Source of the DNA: Terriglobia bacterium
GTDB lineage: Bacteria > Acidobacteriota > Terriglobia > JAJPHL01 > JAPKYU01
Direction of reading: 5' to 3'
Assembly (NCBI GenBank): GCA_965206645.1
Contig: CBDBKE010000003.1
Location: 736,001 to 800,000, forward strand
DNA: 64,000 bases
Below are positions 40,893 to 62,039 of this stretch, in pieces. Under the pieces are notes generated by a model. That model saw nothing but the letters and a program-made list of their open reading frames with translations, was not told where the DNA came from and did not search any database. Positions within the stretch are counted from its first letter, which is position 1. Each line of letters starts with the position of its first letter. Position numbers and translations under genes: made by a program.

Positions 40893-40966
40893 TGCCTGGT
40901 CGTTCAATGGTAGGACGCAGGACTTTGGATCCTGTTATGGAGGTTCGAATCCTCCCCAGGCAGCCA
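40893..40966 (+). tRNA. tRNA-Gln (anticodon TTG)
   Basis: Acceptor stem TGCCTGG/CCAGGCA, anticodon arm CAGGA-CTTTGGA-TCCTG, GGTTCGAATCC T-arm, encoded CCA. Confidence 0.96.
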
Positions 40967-44102: not shown

Positions 44103-44349
44103 TTAGTGCCCCGAGTCCTTCGCTTCCCTTTGGGCCAGGTAACGCGCCCAATCGTCCATCAGGACACGCCGCCTCTCAAACAGGTCCGAGCGTGCATAGG
44201 CCGCTTCGACCTTGTTCCGGACAACGTGCGCCAACGCCGCCTCCATGACCGCATGCGGCGCGTCCGTGCATTCAGCCGCCCAACCATCGAAGCTGGAACG
44301 AAATCCATGGGGTACGGCTCCGATGCCCAGCTTCTTGAGCAGGTGGGAC
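44103..44349 (-). pseudogene. C-terminal relic of a P4-like tyrosine integrase (not in the ORF track)
   Basis: Manual translation: VPHGFRSSFDGWAAECTDAPHAVMEAALAHVVRNKVEAAYARSDLFERRRVLMDDWARYL; cut by the IS21 end. Confidence 0.85.
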
Positions 44350-44539
44350 TGTCAAGGGCGGAGTAAAACTAGACCACTCCGGCGGAGAGAAAGTAGACCA
44401 GTTCAGGGGTGGTGGAAGCTTTGATTTGAGAGGGAGTTGCGGGGGCGGTTGGAGCGGAGGCCTGCGACGCCCGCAGGGCGGCGCGGTTAGGCCGGAGTGG
44501 AAGCCGCCCTCGCAACTCGTCGCCCAGTATTGGGTGAGA

Positions 44540-45304
44540 TCAGGCGCGAGGCTTTCCGGAACGCCTTCGTTTGCTGTCCTTGAGCCGGTAACTTTCCCCG
44601 TTCATCTCCAGGATGTGGACATGGTGGGTGAGACGATCCAGCAGGGCTCCGGTCAGCCGCTCCGATCCGAAGGCCTCCGTCCATTCGTTGAACGGCAGGT
44701 TGCTGGTCACCACGGTGGCGCTGCGTTCGTAGCGCCGGCTGAAGACCTCAAACAGCAACTCCGCCCCAGTCTTGGATAGCGGCACGAAACCCAGCTCGTC
44801 AATGATCAACAGCTCGAAACTGGAGAGCATCTTCTGGAACCGCATCAGGCGCCGCTCGTCCTTGGCCTCGATCAGCTCATGCGCCAGGGAGGCCGCCGTA
44901 GTGAACCGGACCCGGAACCCTTTCTGACAGGCGGCCAGTCCCAGCGCCAACGCAATGTGGGTTTTTCCCGTGCCCGAGTTCCCTAAAGCCAGGATGTTCT
45001 CCTTGCGTTCGATGAACTCGCCTCGGGCCAGCTCGAGCACCAAGGCCTTATTCAGCGACGGAAGGGCCAGGAAATCGAAACTGTCGAGGCTCTTCACCAC
45101 GTCGAACCTGGCTTGGTGAATGCGCCGCTCGGTGGCGCGCCGTTCCCGGTCCAGCAGCTCCAGCTCCGTCAACCGCAGCAGGTAGCGCGGGAAGTCCACG
45201 CCCTCGGCAGCGCACTGCTGCGCCACCTTGTCGTACTCACGCAAAAAGGTGGGTAATTGCAGGGCCTTCAGATGGTGTTCCAGCAACACCTGGGGCGTGT
45301 CCAT
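44540..45304 (-). CDS. istB: IS21 helper ATPase IstB
   Basis: GNSGTGKTH, LIIDELGF, TSNLPF, ALLDRLTHH. Confidence 0.95.
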   Translation of the reverse strand: MDTPQVLLEHHLKALQLPTFLREYDKVAQQCAAEGVDFPRYLLRLTELELLDRERRATERRIHQARFDVVKSLDSFDFLALPSLNKALVLELARGEFIERKENILALGNSGTGKTHIALALGLAACQKGFRVRFTTAASLAHELIEAKDERRLMRFQKMLSSFELLIIDELGFVPLSKTGAELLFEVFSRRYERSATVVTSNLPFNEWTEAFGSERLTGALLDRLTHHVHILEMNGESYRLKDSKRRRSGKPRA

Positions 45305-46803
45305 CAGCAGACTCCTTCCCGGAGCAGGGTCAGATAGTCGGCGGCGGCTGTGGTGGCCACCTGCGTCGCCGGCAGGTGCGGATAGTGCTCCAGGTCCAGC
45401 CGCGCCGGCCGCTGCTCGATCCGGCCCAGCAGCAGATGCTTGACCGCGTCAGACCAGATCGCCCCCAGCCGCAAGGCGTCCTCGACGGCCAGCGACACTT
45501 CCGTCCAACGGAACGTCTCCAGCCGTCGCAGGACCTGCACATACTCCCGCTTGCCCTTCTTGCCTAACCGCGCCTCCATCAGCCGCCGCAGTTGCGCGAA
45601 GCCTTCCGGCAACTCCCAGCCGGCCAGGGGGGCGGCCTGGTTCAACGCGTTCGGCTTCTGCTCCAGCAGCGCCAGATAGTGCAACGGATCGAAGATCATC
45701 TCTTCCCGTTCCTAGCTCCGGACATGGCGTGCGATCACTTCGCTCGCTGCACAGATCACCACTTCCTCGACGAATCCCTTCACCAGCACCTCCCGGTGCC
45801 CCCAAGCCACCGGCACCGAATAGTCGTTGGATCGATACCGCACCAGCGACAGTGACGTCACCCGTGTGGTCCGTTTGTCGCAGGCCTCATAGGGCGTCGC
45901 CGGCAGGGGCAGCAGCCTCTGTTGATCCTTCGCGAACCGCTCGCCGATCGTCTCTTGATGTCCTCGCAGACGCCGCTCTCGCCGCCGGGTGCACTGTTCC
46001 CGCAGCTTCGCGTGCAACTCCTCCCAGCTGGCACACCGCGGCACCGGCACCAGGAAGTTCCGCCGCACGTAACCCACTAGTCCTTCCACTTTCCCTTTGT
46101 CATTGCCCTTGCCCGGTCGTCCGAACTTCTCCGCAAACAGGTAGTGACTCTGCAGTTCGGAGAACGCCCGCGTCTTGTTCCGTGTTCCGTCACCCAGGAT
46201 CTGCCTCACCGCCAGCTTGGTGTTGTCGTACAGGATCGTGCGAGGCACTCCGCCGAAGTAGCCGAACGCCTGGTTGTGCCCTTCTAAGAACGCTTCGGTC
46301 GTCTCAGCCGGAAACGCCATCACGAAGCAGTCGTCCGATTGCGGCAGCTCCATCACGAAATAGTGCGCCTTGCGCTCCACCCCGCCGATCACCACTTGCG
46401 CTTCGCCAAAGTCGGCCTGGGCCTCCCCCGGTGGATGCTCCAGCGGCACGAACATCTCCCGCTGGCTCAGCTTCCGCAGCCGCACGTAGTCCTTCACGAT
46501 GGTGTAGCCGCCCGGGAATCCGTGCTCCTCCCGCAGCCGCTCAAAAACCCGCTTGGCCGTGTGGCGTTGCTTCTTGCTCTGGGCCTTATCTTGCTCCAGG
46601 ATCTGGTCGATGATCCCCACCCAGGCATCCAGCTTCGGCCGCCGCGCCGGCTGCTGCCGCCGATAGCCCGGAGGGATCGAGTACCGCAGCATCTTGCGGA
46701 CCGTCTCGCGGGCTAGCCCGAACTGCCGCGCCGCCTCCCGTTCACTGATCCCCTCAGCCTGAACTGCTCGTCGAACACGCGCATAGAGTTCCACTGTGTG
46801 CAC
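45304..46803 (-). pseudogene. istA: IS21 transposase IstA with an in-frame TAG at 45712-45714
   Basis: AQADFG, YDN, KGKVE. Reads RHVRS*EREEMIFDPLHYL in one frame. Confidence 0.88.
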
Positions 46804-47122
46804 ACCTCCGGTGTTTCACGAAACACATCAGAATCACAATGTTTGATGGAATCGAACTGCGCTGGTCTAATTTTGCACCGCCAGAAACCGCCGCTTACGC
46901 GGCGCTCCCTGGTCTATTATTGCTCCGGCGTTCTACCTTCTGCCTCGATGGTGTGCGCTGTCCCTCGACTCGGTCGCTGGTGGCCAAAGATACCAAGCGT
47001 GTCCAACCCCGGCATGGCCGCTCGCATTTTCTCGACCGTCCGGCTATCCAGACGACTACTCCACGCCAATGGTGACCGTGTTGCTGGGGCGTCTCCCGCG
47101 CAGTTAGGAACCCGAAATATTC

Positions 47123-47156
47123 ACAGTAGCACTTTGTTATAATTTCGTGCTACTGT
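47123..47156. promoter_or_regulatory. 10-bp perfect inverted repeat enclosing an extended -10 box
   Basis: ACAGTAGCAC-tttgtTATAATttc-GTGCTACTGT. Confidence 0.5.
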
Positions 47157-47368
47157 ACTTATGTGGTCGGTCTCGGTGCAAGCAAGGAATTCGGAACGGA
47201 GAACGCTGGTTTCAGAAACCCCTGGGCGAGTAGGTCCGCCCCGGTCTTTGAATCGCTGAATTTCGATCCTTCACGTTGGGTTGCGGACCCAACGGTCCCA
47301 TTTAAGCCTCTGCATTTTCGAGAGTTGACGTGTGGTGTGCAAGAAGTGTGCTGCCTTTTGGGAGCTGC

Positions 47369-47857
47369 ATGAACGAGCGCCGATCCTACTCGCGGCATGG
47401 GCTGAACGTGCTGAAGGCCAGGGTGAAGGTGCGGGGCCTGGCCGCTATTGACATGCGGACGGCGGCGGCTCAGGCCCTTGTTGCCTGGCGATGTGAACTA
47501 CTCTCGGACCTGGGCGGGGAGGAGAGTGTCAGTGCCCAGCAAATGGCCTTGGTGGACATGGCCGTCAGGACGCGGCTGTACGTGGACAGTCTGGACGCCT
47601 GGATTATGGAGCAAGAGTCTCTGGTGAACCGGAAACGCAAGTCGGTCCTGCCGGTGTTGAGGGAGCGCCAGCAACTTGTGGATTCCCTGAGCCGGATACT
47701 GGGACAGGTTGGCCTGGAGAAGAAAGCCAAGCCAGTTCCGGCCCTGGGGGAATATCTGGAGGAGAGGTACGGCGATGGGAAAGCCGACCCTGGGCGCAAG
47801 AAGAACCGACTCCGTACAACAGGAACCAAAAACACCAGTGGGCGCGATTCGCTGTAG
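47369..47857 (+). CDS. Hypothetical protein, terminase small-subunit-like
   Basis: RHGL near the N-terminus, helical core, ..L.QVGLEK tail; GGAG RBS; upstream of the TerL-like gene. Confidence 0.55.
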   Translation: MNERRSYSRHGLNVLKARVKVRGLAAIDMRTAAAQALVAWRCELLSDLGGEESVSAQQMALVDMAVRTRLYVDSLDAWIMEQESLVNRKRKSVLPVLRERQQLVDSLSRILGQVGLEKKAKPVPALGEYLEERYGDGKADPGRKKNRLRTTGTKNTSGRDSL

Positions 47858-48031
47858 GGCAAGCAAAGGCCGATTTCAGGAATCGCTTTCGGTTCCTGTT
47901 GGTTCTCTTTGTACCGAGTCGCAGATTTCAGACTGCAAGCCTGTCGCTACCAGAACCGGCCCGCCTATCGAACACAGGCCAAGCCAGATGGTAAGAACGC
48001 CCATTCCTGGTGAGGACCGAGCAGGCAAGTG

Positions 48032-49522
48032 ATGGCGGCAAGACGCACAGCGACATCACCGGCGCTGACTATCCTGGACGCGATGGCGGACCCGTCCCTG
48101 TTCGACCCGTGGTTCCAGGGCCAGAGTTGGGCAGCCTGGAAAGCGTTCCTGGCGGCGCTGTTTGGCTTGCCGATCAACAAGGCCGCCCTGGAGATCTACC
48201 GGCAGCATACTCGCTGCACGTCAGTTCCAGGATTGCCTGCCAGGGAAGCCTGGCTGGTGGTGGGCAGGCGTGGTGGAAAGAGCTTGATAGCGGCGCTTGT
48301 GTCAGTGTTCCTGGCCTGTTTCCGGGACTACCGGAAGATCCTGGCCCCGGGCGAGCGGGGAACCGTCATGGTGATTGCCGCCGACCGGCGCCAGGCGCGG
48401 GTGGTGTTCCGCTACATCGCCGGCTTCCTGGACACGGTGCCGATGCTGACCCGCATGGTGGAGAGCCGAACCAAAGAGACGATCAACCTGACCAACCGGG
48501 TGACGATCGAAGTGCACACGGCAAATTTCCGTGCTGTCCGGGGCTACACCGTTGTTGCCGCCATCTGCGACGAGATCGCCTTCTGGCGGAGCGAAGAAAG
48601 TGCCAATCCGGACACGGAGATCCTGAACGGACTGCGGCCTGGGATGGCGACGGTTCCAGGCGCTCTGCTGCTGTGCATCTCTTCGCCTTACGCCCGGCGC
48701 GGGGCGCTGTGGGAGGTCTACCGGCAGCACCACGGCCAGGACGGAGACCCGATCCTTGTCTGGCAGGCTGACACTCGCAGCATGAATCCATCGGTTGACG
48801 AACAGGTGATTGCAGAAGCCTATGCCCAGGATGAATCAGCGGCAGCGGCAGAGTACGGCGCACAGTTCCGGCGCGACATTCAGGACTTCATCCCCCACGA
48901 GGTTCTGGAATCTCTGGTTGTCGAAGGCCGGCGCGGGTTGCCGCCGGTTTCGGACCTGCGCTACTTCGCCTTCTGTGACCCGTCGGGCGGCAGCCAGGAC
49001 AGCATGACACTGGCGATCGCCCACCATGAGAACGGTCGCGCCCTGCTGGACCTTGTGCTGGAACGGCGCCCGCCCTTCTCGCCGGAAGCGGTGGTGAAGG
49101 AGTTCGTCGCAACCCTCAAGCAGTACAGCATCAACTCGGTGACCGGCGACCGTTACGGGGGCGAATGGCCGCGGGAACGTTTCCGGGAGCACGGCATCTC
49201 CTACGAACCTTCAGAGAAGACCAAGAGTGAGATCTATGGTGAAGTCCTGCCGTCGCTGAATAGCGGCAAGGTGGAGCTGCTCGACAATGCGCGGCTGCTA
49301 TCGCAACTGCGGGGCCTGGAGCGGCGCACTTCCCGCAGCGGACGGGACACGATTGACCACAGCCCCGGCGGCCATGATGACGTGGCGAACGCAGCGGCCG
49401 GCGCACTGATGCTGGCGCTGAAGCGCGGAGCGATGGTTATCCGCTGCCCTACCGGTGTTGGAAGCGAAAGTCCGTCCTTGTGGGAAGTGTTGGGAGGCTT
49501 CCGGTCGAACTACGATTTCTGA
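48032..49522 (+). CDS. Terminase large-subunit-like ATPase-nuclease
   Basis: Walker A GRRGGKS, Walker B AAICDE, coupling motif ISSP, EYGAQF, RNase H-like FCDPSGGSQD and GGHDDVANA. Confidence 0.8.
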   Translation: MAARRTATSPALTILDAMADPSLFDPWFQGQSWAAWKAFLAALFGLPINKAALEIYRQHTRCTSVPGLPAREAWLVVGRRGGKSLIAALVSVFLACFRDYRKILAPGERGTVMVIAADRRQARVVFRYIAGFLDTVPMLTRMVESRTKETINLTNRVTIEVHTANFRAVRGYTVVAAICDEIAFWRSEESANPDTEILNGLRPGMATVPGALLLCISSPYARRGALWEVYRQHHGQDGDPILVWQADTRSMNPSVDEQVIAEAYAQDESAAAAEYGAQFRRDIQDFIPHEVLESLVVEGRRGLPPVSDLRYFAFCDPSGGSQDSMTLAIAHHENGRALLDLVLERRPPFSPEAVVKEFVATLKQYSINSVTGDRYGGEWPRERFREHGISYEPSEKTKSEIYGEVLPSLNSGKVELLDNARLLSQLRGLERRTSRSGRDTIDHSPGGHDDVANAAAGALMLALKRGAMVIRCPTGVGSESPSLWEVLGGFRSNYDF

Positions 49523-49535
49523 CGTGGAAAACATT

Positions 49536-49598
49536 CGCTCGCTCGCAATCTTGGAAAAGGCCCTGGGGCCGGAGCATCCCAACGCGGCCGTTAGCCTC
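49536..49598 (+). pseudogene. About 21-codon relic of a kinesin-light-chain-type TPR repeat
   Basis: RSLAILEKALGPEHPNAAVSL. Confidence 0.6.
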
Positions 49599-50301
49599 AC
49601 TTGTTTCGCTTCAACCCTAAGACTTCCTTTTCTAGAGACTCAAGAATCTTCCGATGAGTTTCCGAATCAGTAGGCGACACAATGTAAAAACGCCTTTCCT
49701 GACTTGGAACACCAGTACGAGCTTCGATGCTTATAAGCTTACTGGCCAAAGTGACCTCGTGATCTTCTAACTTAGGGTCTGCCTCATACCTAACCTCGAA
49801 AGAGAGTTTCTTGAATGCAATAGACTTTGGAATTAAATAATTCGTCGCGAACCTAGATTGGCCATCTCGCTGTACGACTCTTAGAACAGGAGCAGCGATC
49901 AGGTCTTCAAAATCGATGTCTAGCGTCGCGACACACTCGGTTTCCTCAGCAAGAAGTAGCGGCTCTACTCTCTTAGCTTTGGGATCTTTTTGGAAGGACT
50001 CCAATAAACGAGCCAAGGTGGCTGCCACTGAGTTACCAGCCAACGAACTGTCCCGAACCTGGAGTAAAATCCTTCGTTTTTCAACCGCCAGATTCAGTAT
50101 ATGGACCAACTGCTTTCCTTCCTCAAACGTACCATTGTTGAAGATAACTTGGTTAGTTAGCGGGTCGACCTGGGCTTTGTCAAATTGGAAGGAGTTCTTG
50201 ATTATGTTTCTATTGTTAAGTTGGCGTAGCTCGTCAAGCGGCAGAGAGTCGACCGGATACAGCCTAACTTGAGTCACGGTCAGCTGTTCAATATCCTTCA
50301 T
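49597..50301 (-). CDS. Hypothetical protein, third gene of the hicAB-like operon
   Basis: 234-aa low-GC ORF with an ATGA overlap to the hicB-like gene. Confidence 0.75.
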   Translation of the reverse strand: MKDIEQLTVTQVRLYPVDSLPLDELRQLNNRNIIKNSFQFDKAQVDPLTNQVIFNNGTFEEGKQLVHILNLAVEKRRILLQVRDSSLAGNSVAATLARLLESFQKDPKAKRVEPLLLAEETECVATLDIDFEDLIAAPVLRVVQRDGQSRFATNYLIPKSIAFKKLSFEVRYEADPKLEDHEVTLASKLISIEARTGVPSQERRFYIVSPTDSETHRKILESLEKEVLGLKRNK

Positions 50302-50942
50302 TTTCCCCTTGCACTTTCTTGCTGTTCAATGCTCGATCGTGAAGGCCAGGTGTGCTGTTCCGAGGGTGAATCTACAAGAATAAATCGTCGCAGTAAGTCG
50401 TCAGAGAGTGTTTCAGAGGGTGTTGAGATGGAATACTCCCAACTCTGAACTCCAGTGGAGACAGGAAACACCCTTTGGGTCATCTGAGGATGCAAAGGCA
50501 CAAGATAAGTGACCAATTGAGCAATCTGTCCTTCAATCTCCGCCAACCTACTCTTGAGTTCACCAACCTCCTGATTGAGAGTATCTCCAATGACAGCTGC
50601 GGAAAGGAGGTGCACGATGTACTGGTTGAGGCTCGTGCCATACAGCTTTGCTTTGTCAGCAAGCATCGCGTGCAGCGAAGACGGAAGGCGCGCTAGAATG
50701 CGTCCGCTGTATCCTCGCGTACTTGACGGTGGTGGAACTGGAAGTCCGTGGTCGAGGGCGAACTGCAGCCAATCTTTCTTCACTTCCTGGGCGCTGCTGT
50801 AGGCTTCCTCAACAGTTTCCCCAGAAGCTGAACATCCCGGCAAGTCCAAGAATTCTGCAGTGAAGAGCTTATCGTCCTCGTCGAACTCGATCTTCAGTGG
50901 ATAATTCAGGGCCATGAGTTTCGCAAGGGACTCAGCACTCAT
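50298..50942 (-). CDS. HicB-family antitoxin with coiled-coil C-terminal extension
   Basis: AEFLDLPGCSASGETVEEA, PVPPP, YSGRILARLPSSLH..LA..A...GTSLNQYIV. Confidence 0.85.
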   Translation of the reverse strand: MSAESLAKLMALNYPLKIEFDEDDKLFTAEFLDLPGCSASGETVEEAYSSAQEVKKDWLQFALDHGLPVPPPSSTRGYSGRILARLPSSLHAMLADKAKLYGTSLNQYIVHLLSAAVIGDTLNQEVGELKSRLAEIEGQIAQLVTYLVPLHPQMTQRVFPVSTGVQSWEYSISTPSETLSDDLLRRFILVDSPSEQHTWPSRSSIEQQESARGK

Positions 50943-51298
50943 CAGTCCACCTCCGTGGCTTCCTGTGAAGCAATGACGGCCTTCAGGGCTTCAATCATTT
51001 GCTTTGCCTGACTCTGGTCGAGCTTGCTGATTCGATCCGCACTTCTTCGTGGGCCGTGAGGACGATAAAGGTTTCTAGGATATCTAAAGTGGGGGTCCTC
51101 TCTCAGTAATGGGTGGTAGTACATGACATGGTTCGGGTCGCTGGTGTCCTTCACCTCGAATCCGAGGGACTCTAGTTGGTTTCGGACTTCCTTAAATCGC
51201 CCTCTGCGAACAGCCTCAAGAGCGCACCTAAATTGTTCTTCTGACACTCCACCCTCTGACATCCTAGGACTTGTTCCACAAAGCCTCAGCGCGCTCAT
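50942..51298 (-). CDS. Divergent HicA-like toxin (start may be 51262)
   Basis: RFKEVRNQLESLGFEV..NHVMYYHP..RPH; overlaps the hicB start. Confidence 0.6.
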   Translation of the reverse strand: MSALRLCGTSPRMSEGGVSEEQFRCALEAVRRGRFKEVRNQLESLGFEVKDTSDPNHVMYYHPLLREDPHFRYPRNLYRPHGPRRSADRISKLDQSQAKQMIEALKAVIASQEATEVD

Positions 51299-51303
51299 TC
51301 ACT

Positions 51304-51332
51304 TGATATCACTTGCAGTATCATCTTGTCAA
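51304..51332 (-). promoter_or_regulatory. Promoter/operator of the hicAB-like operon
   Basis: TTGACA on the minus strand at 51327-51332; TGATA-10-TATCA inverted repeat at 51304-51323. Confidence 0.5.
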
Positions 51333-51439
51333 CAAAGCCCCCTCTTAGATTGGTAAGCGGAACAGTCACACCGCCCGAGCGAATTTCTAGGAAGAGAGAG
51401 TAACACGTGGGCTTGGAGAGACGTTGAGAGTTCTGGAAG

Positions 51440-51467
51440 TAGTTACATAAATCTGTTTATGTAAGTG
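51440..51467. other. dif-like (Xer-type) recombination site
   Basis: 11-6-11 layout TAGTTACATAA-ATCTGT-TTATGTAAGTG. Confidence 0.6.
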
Positions 51468-54016
51468 GAATCAATTACTTAGAAGGATTACGCAACCACT
51501 TCTAGGTACTTTCAGAAGGGTTCCTGCATGCCTGAGGGGACGCCTGCTGGCACCTGCACGTTCACCTAGTAGAGCCCCACGAATCCTGGGGCCAGGCCGG
51601 AGAAGCTCACCTGGGCAGGTAGGCCGGCAATGTTCACCAGTGGTGTGTTAAGCGTCTCTGCCAGTGGTGGAGTGCTGGGGGCAACATCTCCCCTGGAAGC
51701 CCTCCAGCGGCGTCAAACTTGAAGCGGTTCAGCTTGCCCGGAACAGGTATGATGACATGGCAGCAAGAAGCGAATGCACATGACTCACCTCGAAAACTTC
51801 CAGCCCCCCGCCGCAGTCCAGGGCATTCTGCCCGACTAAGGCGTTACAGTGGCCAGCGTGCAGTCGTCTTGCTCAGGGCGCCCATGACCAACCGATTGAG
51901 CGTGTTATGACCCGCGACAAGATCACTCTCTCCCAGCTTGAAAGCTTTCTTCTCAAATCCGCCGACATTCTTCGCGGAAAGATGGACGCCTCTGAGTTCA
52001 AGGAATTCATCTTCGGTCTGCTCTTCCTTAAGCGGCTCTCTGACGAATTTGATCGCAAGCGCGAGAATCTCCGCAAAAAGGACTTTGCCCACATCACCGA
52101 TCCTGCCCTTCTCAAAGAGCTACTCGACGATAAAACCTCCTACGGCGACACCTTCTTCGTGCTGGTCCGCCCTCGTGCCGGTCCGCGCTCGTTGGCATGA
52201 GTCCTGGAAGGACGAAAAGGGCGACGAGGTTCCTGCGCTCAAAGACCTCAAGCAAGACATTGGCAACATGCTCAGCAAGGCGCTCGCGGCCGTAGAAGAC
52301 GAGAATGACGCGCTCGCCGGCGTGCTCAAGAACAACATCAATTTCAACGCCATCAAAGGGAAGACCAAAATTCCCGACCAGAGGTGGAAAGACCTCCTCG
52401 ACCACTTCAACCAGCCGCAGTTCGTGCTGGTGAATGACAATTTCGAGTTCCCCGACCTTCTGGGAGCGGCTTACGAATATCTGATCAAATACTTCGCCGA
52501 CAGCGCCGGCAAAAAGGGCGGCGAATTCTACACACCCGCCGAAGTCGTTCGTCTGCTCGTGCAGCTCGTAAAGCCGCGCGCAGGCAATGAAATCTATGAT
52601 CCCACCGTGGGCTCCGGCGGCTTCCTGATTCAAAGCCACCTGTACATAGAAGAGCAGGGTGAAGACCCGAACGACCTCGCCCTCTACGGCCAGGATTCAA
52701 TCGGCGCCGTCTGGTCCATCTGCATCATGAACATGATCCTCCACAACATCACGCGCTTCACGATTGAGAACGCGGATACCCTGGAGGACCCCCAGATACT
52801 GGACCACGGACAGATTCGCAAGTTCGACCGCGTGCTAGCCAATCCGCCTTTCTCCCAGAACTACAGCCGCGCCACTCTGAAGTTTCCCTCGCGCTTCCGC
52901 GAATGGTGCCCTGAGACAGGCAAGAAAGCCGACCTCATGTTCGTCCAGCACATGCTGGCCAGCCTCAAGTCTGACGGTCACATGGCCACCATCATGCCTC
53001 ACGGCGTGCTATTCCGCGGCGGCAAGGAAAAGCTGATCCGCGAACTCTTTATCAACGACGATGTGATCGAAGCCATCATCAGCCTGCCCCCCGCCCTTTT
53101 CTACGGGACGGGTGTTCCCGCATGCGTCCTCGTGATGAACAAGAACAAGCCCGACGCATTGCGTGGCAAGGTGCTCTTCATTAACGCCGACCGCGAGTAT
53201 GCTGAGGGCAAAAACCAGAACAAGCTGCGCCCTGAAGACATTGAAAAGATTGATTTCGTCCTCAGCCAAAAGCGGGAGCTACCCAAATACAGCCGTCTCG
53301 TGGACAAGACGGAGATCGTTGATAAGCACGACTACAACCTCAACATCCGCCGCTACGTGGACAACACGCCCGACCCGGAACCGGAGGACGTGCAGGCACA
53401 CCTCATCGGCGGCGTGCCAGAGGGAGAAGTGAGAGCCAGACACAGCGATTTCGCCAAGTTTGGCGTCGCTGCTGACACGCTATTCCAACCCAAACGACCC
53501 GGCTATCTCGCCTTCCGCACGAACATCACAGCCAAGTCAGCAATTAAGACCACATTGGAATCTGATGCAGCGTTGAAAAAGACCTTCACCGCCCACCACG
53601 ACGCACTGGAGGCATGGTGGGGCGTCGCCCGCGACGACTTTGCCCAGCTTCGCGAGGGCAAGAAAATGCCTGAGGTCCCGCAGGAACTGCTCAAGACTAT
53701 CAAGAGCAAGCTTATTCCTCTGGGCGTGCTTGACGAATTCAAAAGTGCGGGAGTCTTCGTGAACTGGTGGCAGCAGATTCGCTACGACCTCAAGACCATC
53801 ATCTCCACCGGCTGGCATCACACGCTAATTCCCGATTCCTATCTGATCGCCGAATTCTTTCAGGCGGAAGCCGATGCCATCGAGGCGCTGGAAGCCAAGA
53901 TCGGTGAGATCCAGAGCGAACTGGCTGAAGCTGTGGAGACCGCGAAGGAAGTCGCCGCCTATGAACCGGAGGAAGACGAAACCGTCACCGCCGCGGTCAT
54001 CAAGAAAGCCCTTAAA

Positions 54017-55665
54017 CCGGAATTTCCTTTTTGGCCTTCCGGCGATTGAAAATATACACCCATCTGCGTCCCAGCGAGTACAATGTTTTCTCCGAGAGGA
54101 CCATCGGCTCCGAGCGTCCCTTTCGGGGTCCCCTGAAACCGTCCGATCAGCATCCAAACCCAGCTTTTTCAGACAACTCTCCATACCTGGTGGATTAGCG
54201 GCATCGTTTTCTTGTGTGCCGTAGCCCAGGCTATCCCGACGGGAGTGCCCATCCATCGATCCGCCCCAGCATGCTGGCAAACAGCCGTCGGGTCAAATGG
54301 CCCTCGGCCAGCAGGAGCCAGTAGTACCGTGAGTGTTTTAGGAGCCGTCCTCCGGTTTTCACCAGCCGCTGCTGGAGGCTCGTCAAGGACCATTTCTCGA
54401 TTCTCTGTGGCAGCACTAGCCGTCGCCATAGGTTGCCCAGGTTGTAGGCGATGATCGTCAGCCAAAGCCGTACCTCGTTAGATCGGAACTTGTGGCAACT
54501 GAGCCGCGTCATCTTCACCGCCTGCTTGCCTTCCTTGATCCACTGTTCTGCGGTGCCGCGCTTGTTATAGAACCGCACCACCGCCCGATTCGGCAGCGTC
54601 AGATTCGTTACAATGAACCCCACTCGCGGGAACAACTCCCCGGAATGATGCTCTACTTTCGCCACCACCCTTCGAGCCGTCTTCCAACCGGCTGCCTGGT
54701 ACAAGAACCCCTTGTACTCGACCAGCGGTTTCTTGGTGGGCCTTCCCACGGGGCGTTTCAGTAGCTCTTCGATGTCTCGCTGCAGAATATCGTTGGCCGG
54801 GATGCGAATTGCGTACTTCACACCCCGTTCCTCCAATGCCTCGTACACCTCCGGCTTGGCAAAGGCCGCGTCCGCCCGAAACGCAATCTCTTTTCCCATT
54901 CTTTGCTGGCGCTCAATCTCGGGCAACAGGAGTTTCTCCCAACCCTCGGCACTGTGCACGTTGCCCGGACGGAGCTGGGCCGCCAGACAGTCGCCGTCTC
55001 GATTGAACAAAAGCAGCGGGTGATAGCAAGTGGACTCGAAGTGTCCGTTGTAGGCGCTCTGTTCCTGCTCCCCGTAGACCGGAATCTCGGTTGAGTCCAT
55101 ATCCAGCACCGCTCGGTAGTGCCACTGGAAGGCTTCGACCTTTCCGATCAGTTCCCGGTTGATCCGGGCTAACCCGACGAAGTTCTCCACCTTCGCCAGC
55201 ATCTCCGTCTCGAAAGTTTGCAACCTGGAGGTCAGCGCCGCGCCTTGTTCCCAAGTCTTCTCTGAACCAATCAGCCGAAAGGTCGGGTCTTGCGACAGCC
55301 GCTCGGCATCATTTACATCCTCGTATCCAGCTAGGCGACTGTAGACCGACTGCCGCAGCAAGTCCGCGAAAGAAAACCGAGCATTGTTTGCCCGCGAATC
55401 GGTCAGGTGCTCGTCAATGAGTTCGCTGAATCCCAGACGCTCATCCAACTCCCGGACCAGAATCAGTCCACCATTGGAAGTCACCCGTGATCCCTGAAAT
55501 CCGACTCGCAGAAATCGGTTGAACGACAGCTGAAATCCCTGTTTTCCGCTCTCACCCATTGGGTTTACGCCTCCGAACGCTCCGATTGATGCTGCAACCA
55601 GTATCAATATTGACGTTGGAGGTTAGCTGAAGGTTGCCGCTGCGTTTTCAAAAAGGAAATCCGGG
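54017..55665 (-). mobile_element. IS1380-family element, complete (1649 bp)
   Basis: Inverted ends CCGGAATTTCCTTTTTG / CCCGGATTTCCTTTTTG; CTTAA present in both flanks. Confidence 0.92.
54231..55559 (-). CDS. IS1380-family DDE transposase
   Basis: TSNGGL, GYEDVND, LDMDST, YNGH..YHPL, LRPGN, RADAAF, RGTAEQWIKE. Confidence 0.93.
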   Translation of the reverse strand: MGESGKQGFQLSFNRFLRVGFQGSRVTSNGGLILVRELDERLGFSELIDEHLTDSRANNARFSFADLLRQSVYSRLAGYEDVNDAERLSQDPTFRLIGSEKTWEQGAALTSRLQTFETEMLAKVENFVGLARINRELIGKVEAFQWHYRAVLDMDSTEIPVYGEQEQSAYNGHFESTCYHPLLLFNRDGDCLAAQLRPGNVHSAEGWEKLLLPEIERQQRMGKEIAFRADAAFAKPEVYEALEERGVKYAIRIPANDILQRDIEELLKRPVGRPTKKPLVEYKGFLYQAAGWKTARRVVAKVEHHSGELFPRVGFIVTNLTLPNRAVVRFYNKRGTAEQWIKEGKQAVKMTRLSCHKFRSNEVRLWLTIIAYNLGNLWRRLVLPQRIEKWSLTSLQQRLVKTGGRLLKHSRYYWLLLAEGHLTRRLFASMLGRIDGWALPSG

Positions 55666-56257
55666 CTTAAGAGTTGATTGACGACCTCAAGGACAGCAAG
55701 GGAGAATCGGCGCAGAAGGAACTCAAGGCTCTTCAAGCCCAGGGAAAAGCCGTTACCACCCTTGAGAAACGAATCAAGGAGAGCAAAGCCGAACTCAAGA
55801 CACTGACTGACGAACTGGAATACAAGCTCCAGCTCAAGCGCCTCGGTGGCGGCGAATTCAAAACCGAGAGCCAGCAACTTCTCACCCAGGTGGACACCCG
55901 ACTCGGCGCCCTCGATAAGAGCAAGAAGGAGGACAAGAAGAAAATCTCCGCTCTGGAAAAGGACAAGACGACCTTGGAGGCGCGGATGGCCAAAACCGAT
56001 GCCCTTGTTGCCAGCATCGGCGGCCAGCTTACCGAGGCAGAAGCCAAGACCCTCATCCTGAAAAAGCTCTACGACCTCGCCAACCAGGAACTTAATCGCT
56101 ACCTCAATGCCGAGAAGCGGCAGCTGATCCAGATTGTCGAGAATCTCTGGGACAAATACGCAGTATCTAACCGTGTTCTGGAATCCAAGCGAACTGAAAG
56201 CCTCAAGGCATTAGATGGGTTTCTTGTTCGATTGGGGTATGTGCAGGGCGAATTGAG

Positions 56258-57487
56258 ATGAACATCGTGGAAGGATGGCAACACAAGGTATTACGACAGT
56301 TAGCCACCATCAATTACGGTAGGTCTCCTGCAGCGATCTTGGCAGATGACGGCGAGTATCCCGTTGTCGGCACCGGCGATACCGAGCGTGTCGGGAATGA
56401 CTACCTCTACGAGGGTGATTCAATCATCTTAGGTAGAAAGGGAACCATTGATCGGGTTTATTTTGCCACCGGTAGATTCTGGACAATCGACACAGCATAC
56501 TATTTGAGCGGCTTCGACGAAGCACTTCCACGCTGGCTCTTCTATTTTCTCCAAACGTTCGACCTGCGCCAACTGAACGAAGCAACGGGCGTTCCCAGCC
56601 TATCGCGAGAGTTGCTCTACAAGATCGAAATCCCTACGCCCCCCGAACCCGAACAAGCGAAACTCGCCGAGATACTCTCGACAGTGGACCGGGCAATTGA
56701 GCAGACGGAGACGTTGATTGCCAAGCACCAGCGCATCAAGACCGGCCTGATGCAGGACCTCCTCACTCGCGGCATAGACGAACACGGCAACCTGCGCTCC
56801 GAACAAACCCATGCATTCAAAGACTCCCCGCTCGGCAGAATCCCGGCGGAGTGGGATTTTTCGAGACTCGAGTCCATCGGCAGCTGGTCGAGCGGTGGAA
56901 CCCCATCCAAGGCGAATTCCGACTACTGGGGCGATGAGATCCCCTGGGTATGCCCAAAGGATATGAAGACGTTCGACATCGCTTCAACTATCGACCGGCT
57001 TACACAAGCAGGCGTGCGACATGGGAGCAGACTGATGCCCGAAAAAACAGTCTTCATCGTCGTCCGTGCCATGATATTGGCGCACACATTTCCGGTATGT
57101 ATCGCCAATCGGCCGATGGCATTCAACCAGGATGTCAAGGCCATCATCACTGGGCCTAGTGTCGAAGCGCGTTTTCTTGCTTACTGGCTCGTATCCCGGG
57201 CAGAAAACTTTCTGAAGATCACAACGACGGCTACTCACGGAACCAGACGGTTCGACATGAAGGAACTGTTCGACGTGATCATGCCCAAGCCCGAAAGGGA
57301 GGAGCAGAGCCGCGTCGTGACTCGCTTGGATGCGGCGGAAGCACAAATCGATTCCAATAGGAAGATCGCAGGCAAACTCCGCTTGCTCAAAACCGGCCTT
57401 ATGCAAGACCTGCTTACCGGCAGGAAGCGCGTCACCTCCCTGCTAGAGTCAGAACCCAAGCGCGAGAAGATTTATGCACGGCACTGA
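56258..57487 (+). CDS. hsdS: Type I R-M specificity subunit
   Basis: Two TRDs with the repeated conserved region P..EQ..I...L ... KTGLMQDLLT. Confidence 0.92.
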   Translation: MNIVEGWQHKVLRQLATINYGRSPAAILADDGEYPVVGTGDTERVGNDYLYEGDSIILGRKGTIDRVYFATGRFWTIDTAYYLSGFDEALPRWLFYFLQTFDLRQLNEATGVPSLSRELLYKIEIPTPPEPEQAKLAEILSTVDRAIEQTETLIAKHQRIKTGLMQDLLTRGIDEHGNLRSEQTHAFKDSPLGRIPAEWDFSRLESIGSWSSGGTPSKANSDYWGDEIPWVCPKDMKTFDIASTIDRLTQAGVRHGSRLMPEKTVFIVVRAMILAHTFPVCIANRPMAFNQDVKAIITGPSVEARFLAYWLVSRAENFLKITTTATHGTRRFDMKELFDVIMPKPEREEQSRVVTRLDAAEAQIDSNRKIAGKLRLLKTGLMQDLLTGRKRVTSLLESEPKREKIYARH

Positions 57488-60400
57488 TAAAACCGCGCAG
57501 AAGATCAAGCTCGACGAGCGCAACCACGTCGAGAAACCCTTCCTCGACCAACTTGACGGGCTGGGCTGGACGGTCCTTGATCTGGACAGCAAGCAACACC
57601 CCAGTGACACCTACCGAGAGAACTTCACCGAAGTGGTCATGCTTCCCGTATTGCGGGAGCAGTTGAAGGTTATCAACCCGTGGCTGGAAGACGACCAGGT
57701 GGAAGAAGTCATCAAGTAGCTCACGGCCAGCTTTCCCGGCACCGGGCTGATCCAGAACAACCAGCACGCCTTCGACCTGCTGCTGGAAAACACTAGCGTC
57801 AGCGAAAACCGCAGGACGGGCGAAAGAAGTCCGACGGTCCGATTCATTGACTTCAAACACCGGGACAACAACAGGTTCATTGCCGTCTGCCAGTACAGGG
57901 TGCGCATTCGCGGCACCGAGCATCACATCGTACCCGACATCGTCCTGTTTCTTAACGGCTTGCCCGTCGTTGTCATCGAATGCAAATCGCCGAAGGTGAA
58001 GGAGCCGATTCCCGAAGCCATTGACCAGCTCCTTCGCTACAGCGAACAGCGCGGAGCCAAAGGCGAAGGCAGTCCGCCACTTTTTTATTTCAAGCAGTTC
58101 GTCATCACCACCTGCCGGCAGGAGGCAAAATTCGGCACCATTACCAACCGCAGCGAGAAATATTTCTACCGCCTGGGCGGACCCGTTTCCGCGTTCGCTG
58201 AACGACCTGGAGCACGGCGGCAGCAGCCCCAACGACCAGCGACGCCTCGTCGCCGGTATGCTTGACCGCGACAACCTGCTCGACATCATCCGCACCTTCA
58301 CATTGTTCTCCACGAACGACAAGGGTGAGACCATCAAGATCGTCGGGCGCTACCAGCAATTCCGGGCTGTGAAACTGGCCGTGAAGCGCCTTCTGGAAGG
58401 AAAGACTTCCCGCGAGCGTAGCGGCATCATCTGGCACACGCAGGGCTCCGGCAAATCCCTGACCATGATGTTCATGGTGCGGGAGATGTATCGGCATCCT
58501 TCCCTCTCCAAGTGGAAGGTTGTCTTCGTCACAGACCGCACTCAACTAGAGACCCAGCTTTCCGAAACCAGTCAGAGCATCGGCTTCTCTGTGAAGGTAG
58601 CCGACAGCATCAAGGCGCTGAAAGCTTTGCTCTCCACCGACTCTTCCGACCTCGTGATGGCGATGATCCACAAATTCCGCGAGGTGGACCTGAAGGAGAC
58701 CTTCCCGGAATTGAACGCAAGCCCCCACATCCTCGTGATGACGGATGAGGCCTATCGCTCGCAATACTCAATGCTGGGGGCGAACCTCGATAAGGGAATT
58801 CCGAACTCAGCCCGCATTGCCTACACCGGCACCCCCATCGACAAAACCGAGCGCGTCTTCGGTGACTACATCGACAAATACCCCCTGCGTCAGTCCATCG
58901 AGGACGGTGTGACGCTGGAAATCGTCTATGAAGGCCGGACTCACAATGCGGAAGTGCCTGACAAGGCTGGCATGGACATCGCTTTCCAGGATGTGTTCAG
59001 CGACTACAACCTTCAGCAGCGCCTGGAGATTCTTGGTTATGGCTCACGGGACGCGTATCTTGAAGCCAAACCAACCATCGCGGCCAAAGCAAAAGACATG
59101 GTGACACACTACCTGACCCACGTCTTTCCGAACAGCTACAAGGCGCAGATCGTCGCTACGTCCCGCGAGGCAGCCGTGCGCTACAAGGAATACATAGATG
59201 CGGCCCTCGCCGAAGCTCTCGCAGGGCTGGAGAAGGACAACCCCGAAAACATCAATCTCGACTGCCTCAGAAAAATGAAAACGGATGTGATCATTTCCGG
59301 CAGTCATAACGACGAGCTTCACCTCAAGCTCTACACCGACAGCTCCAAACATAAAACCAGCATCAAGAGTTTCAAGTTGCCGTTCGATGCCGAGGACGAA
59401 GGCATCTTTGGCGATACCGGCATTCTGATCGTCAACAACATGCTGCTCACCGGGTTCGATGCCCCGCTGGAGCAAGTGATGTATCTCGACAAAATCGTCA
59501 TCGCGCATAGCTTGCTCCAGGCAATTGCTCGTGTGAACCGGGTGAGCGGTCCCGCGAAGGACAAGGGCTTCGTCGTGGATTACGTCGGCGTGGGCCACCA
59601 CCTGAAGAAGGCGCTCGACAACTATGATGAACGGGAACAGAACGAAGTGCTTGATGTGCTTAGTTTCCCGGAGGAGGAATTGCTTGAACTCCAGGCCAGC
59701 CATGAAGCCATCGCGGACTTCCTCAAAAACCACGGCCTCACAGACCTCACTGATCACGACGCCTTTTTCGATCTGTTTTATGACGAAGACGTCCGCTTTG
59801 AGTATATGACCCTGTTCAGGAACTTCACCAAATGCCTGAACCTCGTCTTTCCAGCCAAGGAGGCGCTCGACTTCATGGGCAACTACGAGGCGCTCATGGA
59901 GATCAATGTTCTCGCTGCAAAACACTTCCGCGACGGACGGCTCAGCATGAGGGAAATTCCGCCGAAGCTGCGGAACGTCATCGACACTTTCCTTGAATCA
60001 CGAGGCATCACGGTGAAGGTCAAGCCCATTTCAATTCTCGATCAGGACTTTCACAAGGAGGTCAAGAACCGGAACCGGGCAAAAACCAAGGCGGCCGAGA
60101 TCGAACACGCTATTCGACACCACCTCGATATCGAGCTTGAGGACGACCCCGACCTCCAAGCCTCATTTGCCGAGGCATTGAAGAAGATTCTTGAAGACTT
60201 CCAGGACAACTGGAACAAGATCTCCGAGGAACTGAAGAAGCTTCGACAGCGCATCATAAATGCTGGCAAAGAACCGACCTATGGGCTGCACCGCAAGAAG
60301 GAGATGCCTTTTTTCCGAATGCTCAAGAAAGAGATTTTCGGCGACACGGAACTGGATGACGACGCCATTTCGCCATTGGTGTCCCTCACGCATCAAGTCT

Positions 60401-60606
60401 TTGGCGACGTGGACCGCGAGCTAAAACTGACAGGTTTCTGGGAAAGCATCCCGGCCCGGAACAAACTCAAGGCGGATGTTCAAAAGACACTGCTTCAGAA
60501 CAACTTTTCCAAGTTGCCGGGTCTGGTGAAGAATCGCGCCCACATCATCAGCCGCGTGATGGAGGTCGCGGAAAAGAACAACGATACGATCCTGTACGCC
60601 CCATGA
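57474..60606 (+). pseudogene. hsdR: Type I R-M restriction subunit with an in-frame TAG (57717-57719) and a +1 frameshift (~58172)
   Basis: PDIVLFLNGLP..IECK, HTQGSGKS, DEAYRSQY, YTGTP, MLLTGFDAP, QAIARVNR. Confidence 0.9.
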
Positions 60607-62039
60607 TCGACATTTGCTACGAAATCGTGCGTTCCCCTAAACGAAAGACGCTCACCATTACGGTCGAGCGGGATAGGGCGATTACCGTCCATGCGCCGGA
60701 GGGCACATCCGACAGCGAGATACAGCGGCTTGTCGATGCAAAGCGTCAGTGGATATTGGCAAAGCTCCGCCACCTGCAGAAATATCAGGAGCGCTTGCAT
60801 CCGCCCGGCAAGGAAGTGGTGAATGGAGAATCGGCCCCCTACCTCGGAAGGGACTACCGAATCGAAATCACCAAAACTCTGAGCGGTGAAATTGAGTTCT
60901 CCAGCCTTTTTCTAATCCCACCCACGCATCAGGCCAAACGTCGTAAAGTCCTGCGGGATTGGTATATTGCGCGCGCCAGAGAAAAGATTCTCGCCCGCGC
61001 GGAAGAACACGCGCACGCGCTTGGCGTAAAATTCGTCGCAGCCAAGATTGTTGATAATCGTTACCGCTGGGGCTCCTGCACTGTCAAGGACAACGTCAGT
61101 TTCAATTGGCGGCTCATCAAAGCGCCCATGTTCGTCACTATGCCAGCTCAACCGGTCGATGACGTTAAATCGTTCTGCCGGAGTTTCAAACTTCTGACGG
61201 GGCCGTTCGTTCAGCTGACGTGCCACCTTGTTCAGATGCGCCTGAGAGTGCACCGACAAGTCCGTTCCCTTGGGGAAGTACTGTCGGAGTAGACCGTTGG
61301 TGTTCTCATTCGAACCGCGCTGCCATGGACTCTGAGGATCACAGAAGTATACGTCAATGTCGGTCGCCAACGTGAACCGTCGATGCTCGGCGAGCTCCAC
61401 GAACTCGCTCATCTCATCGAGACCAACCACACGTCCCGTTTTTTGGAACATTGTGATCTGTCCTCGTCCCGCGCAAATGAACAAACAGGCTGCGGTAGAT
61501 GGTCTCGTGAGACACGTGATAGGACGGATCCTTCCTCTAGAATGGATGCTTGGCTGACACCGCTTCGGCCGGCGGGCCCTCTCCCCGGCTTGCTCAAAGT
61601 CATTATCGCCGCCATTCCGCCGAATCTCCCGGCTCACCGGCGTAATGTGCCGCAATGCCTCGAGAGATCTCTTCGCGCTCCGACAACGTCAGTGCCCAAC
61701 ATGAACGGCGTGGTGGCCGAGGACGGATGCCTCCGTACGGAGCAAGCTTACAAAACACTCGTCCAATCGACTTGAGCGACTCCCCTCGTTTCCACCGATC
61801 CCACACCTCCTCCAGTTCCGCCAGCGTGTAACCGCGACGAGCTCTTTGCTTCATCCGCATACACTCCACCTCCTCCTTTCAAGGCAAAGTGCTACGTTAT
61901 TGTCCACGAACTCGCTCATCTCATCGAGACCAACCACACGTCCCGTTTTTGGAACATTGTCCGCGCAAATACCTCTAGAATGGAAAAGGCAAAGGCTTGG
62001 CTGAAAGAACGAGGGCAGGTTTTGGAAGAGGAAGTCTAG
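60603..62039 (+). pseudogene. M48/YgjP-like metallopeptidase interrupted by IS30
   Basis: RSPKRKTL, RWGSC, FNWRLI. C-terminus YVIVHELAHL..NHTSRFW resumes at ~61893. Confidence 0.85.
61140..61892 (-). mobile_element. IS30-family element, collapsed or degenerate
   Basis: [61 protein letters not shown]; boundaries approximate. Confidence 0.8.

Follow-up and report, generated by a model that had tools for sequence, protein, structure and literature searches.

Why would a bacterial chromosome carry an intact pair of terminase genes with no virion gene beside it? The question is raised by a stretch of 64,000 nucleotides from a Terriglobia bacterium (assembly GCA_965206645.1, contig CBDBKE010000003.1, positions 736,001 to 800,000; the whole stretch is called the window below), in which an open reading frame (ORF) for a large terminase subunit (TerL) is preceded by an ORF for a small, TerS-like protein:

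47369..47857, plus strand: TerS-like ORF, 162 aa, all-helical, directly upstream of TerL and co-oriented with it
48029..49522, plus strand: TerL ORF, 497 aa, intact, with an N-terminal ASCE ATPase and a C-terminal RNase H-like nuclease

The original prediction, made from the letters of the sequence, had offered three explanations for this pair: a satellite-type packaging module, a domesticated ATPase-nuclease and a prophage remnant. With moderate confidence, the pair is read here as the packaging module that survives, as a stump, from a small integrative island resembling phage satellites.

As judged from its sequence and its predicted structure, the product of 48029-49522 is a complete phage-type large terminase. 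The ORF opens with GTG, directly followed at 48032 by an ATG, which is the likely start; the database copy of the protein (P0003) has 496 aa. The motifs quoted in the original prediction are in place (GRRGGKS at residues 79-85, ICDE at 179-182, ISSP at 217-220, FCDPSGG at 315-321 and HDD at 449-451) and, in a family alignment of 26 sequences, occupy invariant columns (G79-K84, D181/E182, S218-P220, D317, D374 and H449-D451), with the Walker A (GRRGGKS), Walker B (ICDE) and coupling (SSP) motifs of the ATPase all invariant, together with the acidic residues of the nuclease (D317, D374 and D450/D451). Profile and structure searches agree with this assignment. The Pfam family TerL_ATPase is matched at E 8.8e-6 (26 bits, for a cut-off of 23.7) and PHROG_2, the terminase large subunit, at E 8.1e-23; a scan of NCBIfam gave nothing useful for either protein of the pair. 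The AlphaFold model (pLDDT 85.6) finds the TerL of HK97 as its top match in the PDB (6z6d, E 2e-19, 16% sequence identity), followed by the PhiV-1 terminase in the Avs3 complex, T4 gp17 and Sf6 gp2. Both domains of TerL match single-domain structures well, the nuclease that of G20c (5m1f; TMt 0.77, rmsd 2.8) and the ATPase that of P74-26 (4znk; TMt 0.66), and the protein is judged to be complete. In a sequence search of the PDB, the only match was the same G20c nuclease at E 0.05, with the GHDD motif aligned.

The 162-aa protein, described as helical in the original prediction, is modelled as an all-helical bundle (pLDDT 81.9) and is probably, on the grounds of sequence context and modelling, the conserved partner of TerL and a small terminase of the HK97 type. 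It is labelled TerS-like because of its position, its size, its fold and a weak pass in co-folding, and a TerS function is what we infer for it. The corresponding cluster (by blastp) lies directly 5' of TerL in 47 of 77 loci, at a median position that abuts or overlaps the terL start. The 223 homologues are all unnamed and none carries a Pfam domain; the protein itself has no match in Pfam or NCBIfam, and none among PDB sequences. The small-terminase profile PHROG_1496 matched one of 46 TerS-like family members, the window copy, at E 0.007. Among 48,161 PDB chains, the best match of the model was the small terminase of HK97 (8pop_A; Z 8.4, rmsd 2.9 Å over 89 aa, 8% identity), a score only 0.8 above that of the next unrelated helical protein and within the range expected by chance for helical models. 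Foldseek against the PDB returned nothing at E<=0.001 and, in BFVD, seven of the 12 top matches were named TerS, at non-significant E values of 0.37-1.2. Co-folding of TerS-like protein and TerL gave a score of 0.51 against 0.22 for the best control, with at least 71% of the contacts shared between runs and a partner pLDDT of at least 65, and was graded as weak support; in calibration, the mark was attained by 116 of 157 solved complexes and two of 215 mismatches, and only 18 of the 157 lay at 0.60 or below. The fold of the terS-terL spacer is unremarkable (z -1.0).

The absence of virion genes, also part of the original prediction, holds over the whole window: no portal, capsid or tail family was matched among the ORFs scanned (30 ORFs of at least 120 aa in 1-39.7 kb, and those of 39.7-64 kb). 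In the entire genome (4.4 Mb, 97.9% complete), there was no match to the capsid family PF05065 or to the portal families PF04860 and PF05133, while the lack of matches to PF13264 is uninformative, as control genomes gave none either. A gene transfer agent origin was considered as well and dropped because the genome is without capsid or portal. In the complete phage HK97, the terminase genes adjoin the portal gene. The order expected of a prophage head module, a portal beside terL and then capsid and tail genes, is absent from the window locus, in which terL is followed, on the opposite strand, by a 234-aa gene and a HicB-like gene, and then by a type I restriction-modification (R-M) system. 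Nor does the window hold an own capsid, portal, protease or head-tail connector gene, the set by which phage-inducible chromosomal islands of the capsid-forming kind (cfPICIs) are recognized.

An answer is suggested by the relatives. The window TerL belongs to a family for which the sole name given at the source is "hypothetical protein": 7,982 of 8,000 scored candidates were homologous, many of them at 60-78% identity, and an exhaustive search returned 3,228 representatives of 50% identity clusters at E<=1e-30. Among 50,697 GenBank phage records only two match, at no more than 31.5% identity. Neighbourhoods were compared for the best 80 of 136 genome loci (L001-L080), using crude ORF calls (longest, non-overlapping) and blastp clusters. 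Sequence reaching 7 kb or more upstream was available for 62 loci; of these, 41 have a tyrosine-integrase cluster (37 of them on the same strand as TerL), 33 a replicase of the D5_N/DUF5906, DUF3987 or Prim-Pol type, and 39 the TerS-like cluster; all three occur together in 15, and 11 have neither integrase nor replicase. These figures are undercounts, because other replicases (AAA_25; PHROG_35045 primase) and integrases downstream of TerL fell outside the clusters. Past TerL, the 233 same-strand ORFs of at least 130 aa within 5 kb, drawn from every locus with a TerL match, were reduced to 180 representatives, of which 150 were scanned in Pfam, and the other 30 together with 38 unannotated ones in PHROGs. 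A recognisable portal gene follows TerL in none of the 80 genome loci, and a capsid gene in seven (L013, L019, L025, L034, L062, L031 and L022); the cargo after TerL includes defence-type genes (AbiJ, SLATT_5, Eco57I/MmeI and T5orf172).

Of 24 loci scanned, eight have a tRNA gene on the minus strand at 1.2-2.5 kb past TerL, and four islands, 8.7-10.7 kb long, are bounded by direct repeats of the tRNA 3' end, as expected of attachment (att) sites:

island L031: 48-nt perfect repeats, 10,710 bp apart, tRNA-Asn
island L019: 60-nt repeats, 8,852 bp apart
island L026: 25-nt repeats, 8,710 bp apart, tRNA-Gly
island L021: 18-nt repeats, 9,377 bp apart, tRNA-Ser

The gene order in these islands is integrase, a gene of no assigned function, an AlpA/excisionase-like gene (PHROG_66, in three of the four), primase and/or helicase, TerS-like gene, TerL and up to three further genes. 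Tandem or close direct repeats lie between replicase and terS (L026 8910-8979, L019 9053-9121, L021 9118-9222 and L031 6544-6785) and are candidate origins or packaging sites. On one contig of Methylobacterium cerastii, two islands of the family (L040 and L041) adjoin each other back to back; their integrases diverge and their TerLs are almost identical. One related locus (L047) is from a marine metagenome-assembled genome. In some loci from Acetobacter (L051-L053, L066, L069 and L075) and Methylobacterium (L041 and L067), and in L029 and L033, TerL is followed by DUF2213 protease-like, tape-measure and baseplate-hub genes, a partial virion set with no recognisable portal or major capsid gene.

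What is probably left of such an island in the window can be read from the sequence to the left of the pair:

40893..40966, plus strand: tRNA-Gln(ttg), found by ARAGORN and by Rfam (tRNA, 64.7 bits)
44124..44350, minus strand: stump of an island-type tyrosine integrase, C-terminal ~75 aa, ending at the left inverted repeat of IS21
44378..46930, minus strand: element of the IS21 family, 2,553 bp, with istA at 45304-46803 and istB at 44540-45304
47123..47156, plus strand: palindrome with perfect 10-bp arms and TATAAT in its loop, 210 bp upstream of terS

Housekeeping genes fill 1-39.7 kb of the window, and the tRNA-Gln gene marks their end and the start of an island region rich in insertion sequences (IS); it is a possible original integration target of the island. 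To its right come a fragment of an IS1380 transposase and then ORFs that could not be assigned. The integrase stump, whose translation shows HGFR and AAY motifs with stop codons upstream, was matched in 17 tblastn comparisons by the integrases of the island cluster (cluster 1), at E values down to 2e-18 and up to 67% identity over 57 aa. The neighbouring IS21 element (Pfam IstB_IS21 at E 1.2e-71; Mu-transpos_C_2) carries terminal inverted repeats, located at 44378-44406, 46857-46885 and, in addition, 46909-46930, and is present in the genome in 11 full-length copies, the window one included, at 99-100% identity; assembly contigs break at its ends. It occupies the place at which the N-terminus of the integrase and the replication genes would be expected, and insertion of IS21 and then an adjacent deletion would be the simplest account of the lost genes. 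No D5_N replicase was found anywhere in the source genome, and neither a replicase nor an AlpA-like gene among the window ORFs scanned. As a mobile element the window island is dead, with its integrase reduced to ~75 residues and its replicase and att sites gone. The original prediction had noted an intact pair amid decayed genes, a picture which the integrase stump and the IS1380 fragment bear out, and it had named the neighbours correctly as IS21, toxin-antitoxin modules and R-M; in the scans, they are IS21 (istA/istB), a HicB-like gene and type I R-M genes interrupted by a DDE transposase.

Between IS21 and terS lie 438 bp without recognisable homology, which include the palindrome at 47123-47156. 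Its fold (-25.1 kcal/mol, z -3.0) was equalled by two of 200 shuffled sequences, and it may be an operator or a promoter, perhaps an operator over a promoter; a scan for consensus promoters did not call it. Over the region, the scan found one promoter against 1.0 expected, and seven terminator-like sites against 3.7 expected, none decisive. On 40-52 kb, Rfam returned only the tRNA and one sub-threshold hairpin match.

In intact members of the family, the genes suggest the following course. A helper phage would trigger excision of the island; the island replicase would then produce concatemers, the island's own TerS would mark the DNA, and its own TerL would dock on the portal of the helper procapsid and pump the island DNA in. 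Dependence of the family on a helper is suggested by gene content alone. The satellite explanation fared differently at its two levels: it fits the family, with its att-bounded islands and no recognisable portal in 80 loci, and does not fit the window copy as a working hijack module.

Several points weigh against reading the window pair as an island stump. Packaging of family members with a helper is so far a prediction. In the window, direct repeats in 43-50.4 kb are of chance size only and no att repeat was found among them, no second copy of the tRNA-Gln 3' end was found either, and the deletion beside IS21 is inferred rather than seen. The integrase stump lies on the strand opposite to the pair, a minority layout found in only seven of 62 loci (for example L005), and it could belong to a different island; its link to terS-terL is presumed. 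As to the TerS-like protein, 45 of 46 family members are without sequence-family support, and the fold match (Z 8.4) is one that helical models attain by chance. The closest relative (L001, 77%) is a lone intact pair among ordinary genes, which four further loci resemble (L004, L007, L011 and L059), and such lone pairs could mean that terS-terL has a life of its own. Finally, two portal-bearing loci from viral contigs (L083 and L086) fall inside the weakly supported 13-member TerL set that contains the window copy, so that its TerL lineage is shared with real phages.

These viral contigs bear on one alternative, in which the pair would be what remains of an ordinary prophage, TerS and TerL being the first two genes of the head module of a temperate phage that has since lost portal, capsid and tail genes by deletion. 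Of 14 IMG/VR loci examined, L083 (TerL 58% identical) continues straight from TerL into a DUF4055 portal and a MuF-like gene, L086 (52%) and L096 (41%) have portals near it, and portals are also present in L092-L095 (26-28% identity). A quick maximum-likelihood tree, built from 85 TerLs, joins the window copy first to L001 and then to L002 and L055; L083 and L086 stand inside its subclade. The fold and motifs of a phage TerL and a region rich in IS-mediated damage would fit a decayed prophage too. By contrast, TerL is followed by a recognisable portal in none of the 80 genome loci, neither window nor genome yielded a further phage gene of whatever module, and no sequenced phage among the GenBank records has a close TerL. 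Moreover, the window TerS is of the island type and unlike what precedes TerL in L083 and L086: hhalign of the TerS-like family against those upstream ORFs gave probabilities of 0.2 and 0.1, that is no similarity, and tblastn of the protein against the 14 IMG/VR loci found nothing. DNA similarity to relatives is likewise confined to the pair: it begins at 47368 (with L001) or 47361 (with L107), at or just before the terS ATG at 47369, covers terS and, within terL, 48065-49536, and stops 14 bp past the TerL stop codon. A prophage remnant is for these reasons held to be unlikely. Phages of the L083/L086 type are candidate helpers or ancestors. The small IMG/VR contigs were found to be free of terminal repeats. 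The phage phiAH14b was considered as a precedent and is not used as support, there being no phage record with a close TerL.

The limited extent of DNA similarity, together with the lone pairs in unrelated contexts, could also suggest a minimal element that has kept its mobility, for instance as a two-gene selfish cassette or through integrases or IS elements acting in trans. This is highly improbable, since terminal repeats, target duplications and a recombinase of its own are all missing from the pair, and most relatives reside in full islands; TerS and TerL are not known to mediate transposition.

A further possibility is that the host kept TerS and TerL after the death of the island, in a region rich in defence genes, with the benefit of hindering the packaging of invading phages (by competing with them for procapsids or by cutting concatemers) or of promoting DNA transfer. 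Such domestication is rather unlikely, and the evidence that bears on it can be read in two ways. Both ORFs are intact, with every invariant catalytic column, beside an integrase of which only a stump is left, and lone intact pairs recur elsewhere (the five loci named above). However, IS21 is expanding now, and therefore the intactness may just reflect a recent event. By the Nei-Gojobori method, the ratio of nonsynonymous to synonymous substitutions (dN/dS) of terL is 0.16 against L001, another lone pair (dS 1.07), and 0.12 against L107 (dS saturated), and that of terS is 0.30. Synteny is lacking between the two lone pairs compared, and therefore the low dN/dS may date from a mobile phase; as sequence comparisons, these values point to long-term constraint and are not informative on the time since the copy was stranded. 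The original prediction would have been contradicted by close homologues in complete prophage head modules combined with relaxed selection on this copy: portal-bearing L083 and L086 do sit in the same subclade, whereas the dN/dS of 0.12-0.16 gives no sign of relaxed selection.

Conservation of the arrangement at the population level gives a similarly divided picture. An assembly from a second study (X4) covers 47627-51611 with 12 differences (~99.7% identity) and the same IS junction, as might be expected of a retained pair. On the other hand, distribution is patchy, terL being found in six of 41 related genomes, the source genome counted, and sister genomes carry frameshifted or fragmentary copies. 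In the same genus, one genome (G001) has an intact pair (77%), and another (G003) an 88% terL copy with a frameshift close to residue 56 and no terS, plus three fragments; in a third genome (G025, 71%), an integrase lies directly upstream. Visibly broken TerLs number about five among the 80 loci, a best-matching set and hence biased to intact copies. Contigs from RNA libraries (two runs of one study) are identical to 49196-49481 and 49336-49566 and might be taken as a weak hint that the pair is expressed. They reach only the 3' end of terL, and could equally come from read-through of the convergent 234-aa gene or from DNA carry-over; terS and the 5' two-thirds of terL are uncovered, which is not evidence of silence. 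The HicB-like and R-M neighbours and the defence-type cargo after TerL in relatives would suit a role in defence, but none of the families in PADLOC-DB 2.0 (2023 library, E<=0.01) matches TerL, the TerS-like protein or seven neighbours.

If the pair is the stump of an island, as preferred here, the family may be set against the known satellites. As described in PMC10085698, the Gram-negative phage-inducible chromosomal islands (PICIs) delimited by SatelliteFinder resemble it in having an integrase, an AlpA-type regulator/excisionase and a primase-replicase followed by a small terminase, in their size of ~9-10 kb (the median for PICIs being 9.5 kb; de Sousa et al., 2023, PMC10085698), in integration at direct repeats and in the lack of tail genes. 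The set of integrase, regulator (AlpA/MerR/Stl) and primase-replicase is present in the relatives and absent from the window. Unlike the PICIs of that account, the family adds a complete TerL, and the window copy, its integrase stump apart, is without integrase, regulator and replicase; the remark in the original prediction that PICIs usually encode only TerS agrees with the same source. The cfPICIs, which are defined by capsid, portal, protease and head-tail adaptor/connector genes of their own (PMC10085698; bioRxiv 10.1101/2022.09.08.507074), share with the family an own TerS and TerL, the latter of phage origin in cfPICIs, and differ from it, on the description in PMC10085698, by their capsid and portal set, which the window lacks and of which the 80 related loci have no portal and, in seven cases, a capsid gene. 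The VEIMEs (integrative mobile elements encapsidated in virions; PMC9618062 / bioRxiv 10.1101/2022.07.26.501625) and the PICMIs (minimalist chromosomal islands inducible by phages; PMC10803314), reported as small marine satellites packaged as concatemers, are likewise small integrase-bearing elements without capsid genes; a TerS and TerL pair was not found described as a core feature of theirs (PMC9618062, PMC10803314), and these elements, with the "motor-like ATPases" of VEIMEs (PMC9618062), might overlap with the present family. The HK97 terminase remains the best structural match of both models (6z6d for TerL and the TerS-DNA complex 8pop for the TerS-like protein), at 16 and 8% identity.

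No description of islands with integrase, primase, TerS and TerL and without capsid and portal was found in the literature (the supplementary tables of PMC10085698 and PMC9618062 aside), and a capsid-less, terminase-bearing island family is apparently undescribed. The satellites described so far either borrow the large terminase of the helper (PICI, P4 and PLE) or make their own complete capsid (cfPICI). A widespread family that has a full terminase and lacks a capsid would, if the reading is true, add a third strategy: taking over the packaging motor and stealing the shell. Tight matching between satellite TerL and helper portal would then be predicted, which is testable because portal-bearing relatives of the phage type exist at 52-58% identity. 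The window would in addition show islands dying by IS insertion and deletion, with the terminase pair able to remain, and it bears on the recycling of such remnants by the host. For annotation, a lone TerL should not be equated with a prophage. A bolder proposal, considered very unlikely, is that the stranded pair is still expressed and, on infection by a compatible phage, packages in situ from a site near terS, pumping the chromosome rightwards, with the HicB-like cluster and the type I R-M island, into borrowed capsids; the dead satellite would be a fixed launch pad by which the adjoining defence island undergoes lateral transduction, and the family a new class of satellites with a whole terminase and no capsid.

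Other features of the region concern the neighbours of the pair. The istA gene of IS21 contains a single in-frame TAG (45709-45711, minus strand) after codon 363, beyond which conserved sequence runs on for 131 aa, and yet the element has 11 near-identical copies; read-through of the stop may be programmed, the transposase may be made in two parts, or the copies may have been mobilised in trans. Contigs of two RNA-library runs (X10 and X19) join 44551 to 45315 and exactly omit istB (763 nt), which suggests that an IS copy variant without istB exists in the community from which they derive. To the right of terL, 49597-51298 (minus strand) holds three co-oriented genes, of 118 aa (no match), 214 aa (HicB-like) and 234 aa (no match), the last represented only by unnamed clusters in the protein atlas. 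A homologue of the HicB-like protein (32% identity) is also found inside the related island L016, and therefore it is maybe an island regulator and not an antitoxin. The type I R-M system (hsdM, hsdS, hsdR and a YgjP-like peptidase) occupies 51938-61292, with a DDE_Tnp_1_4 transposase gene (54231-55607, minus strand) inserted between hsdM and hsdS, and, starting at 50 kb, the G+C content falls from ~0.62 to ~0.55. The leftmost part of the window contains, at 425-2206, a gene for a HipA-like kinase followed by a DUF3037 gene.

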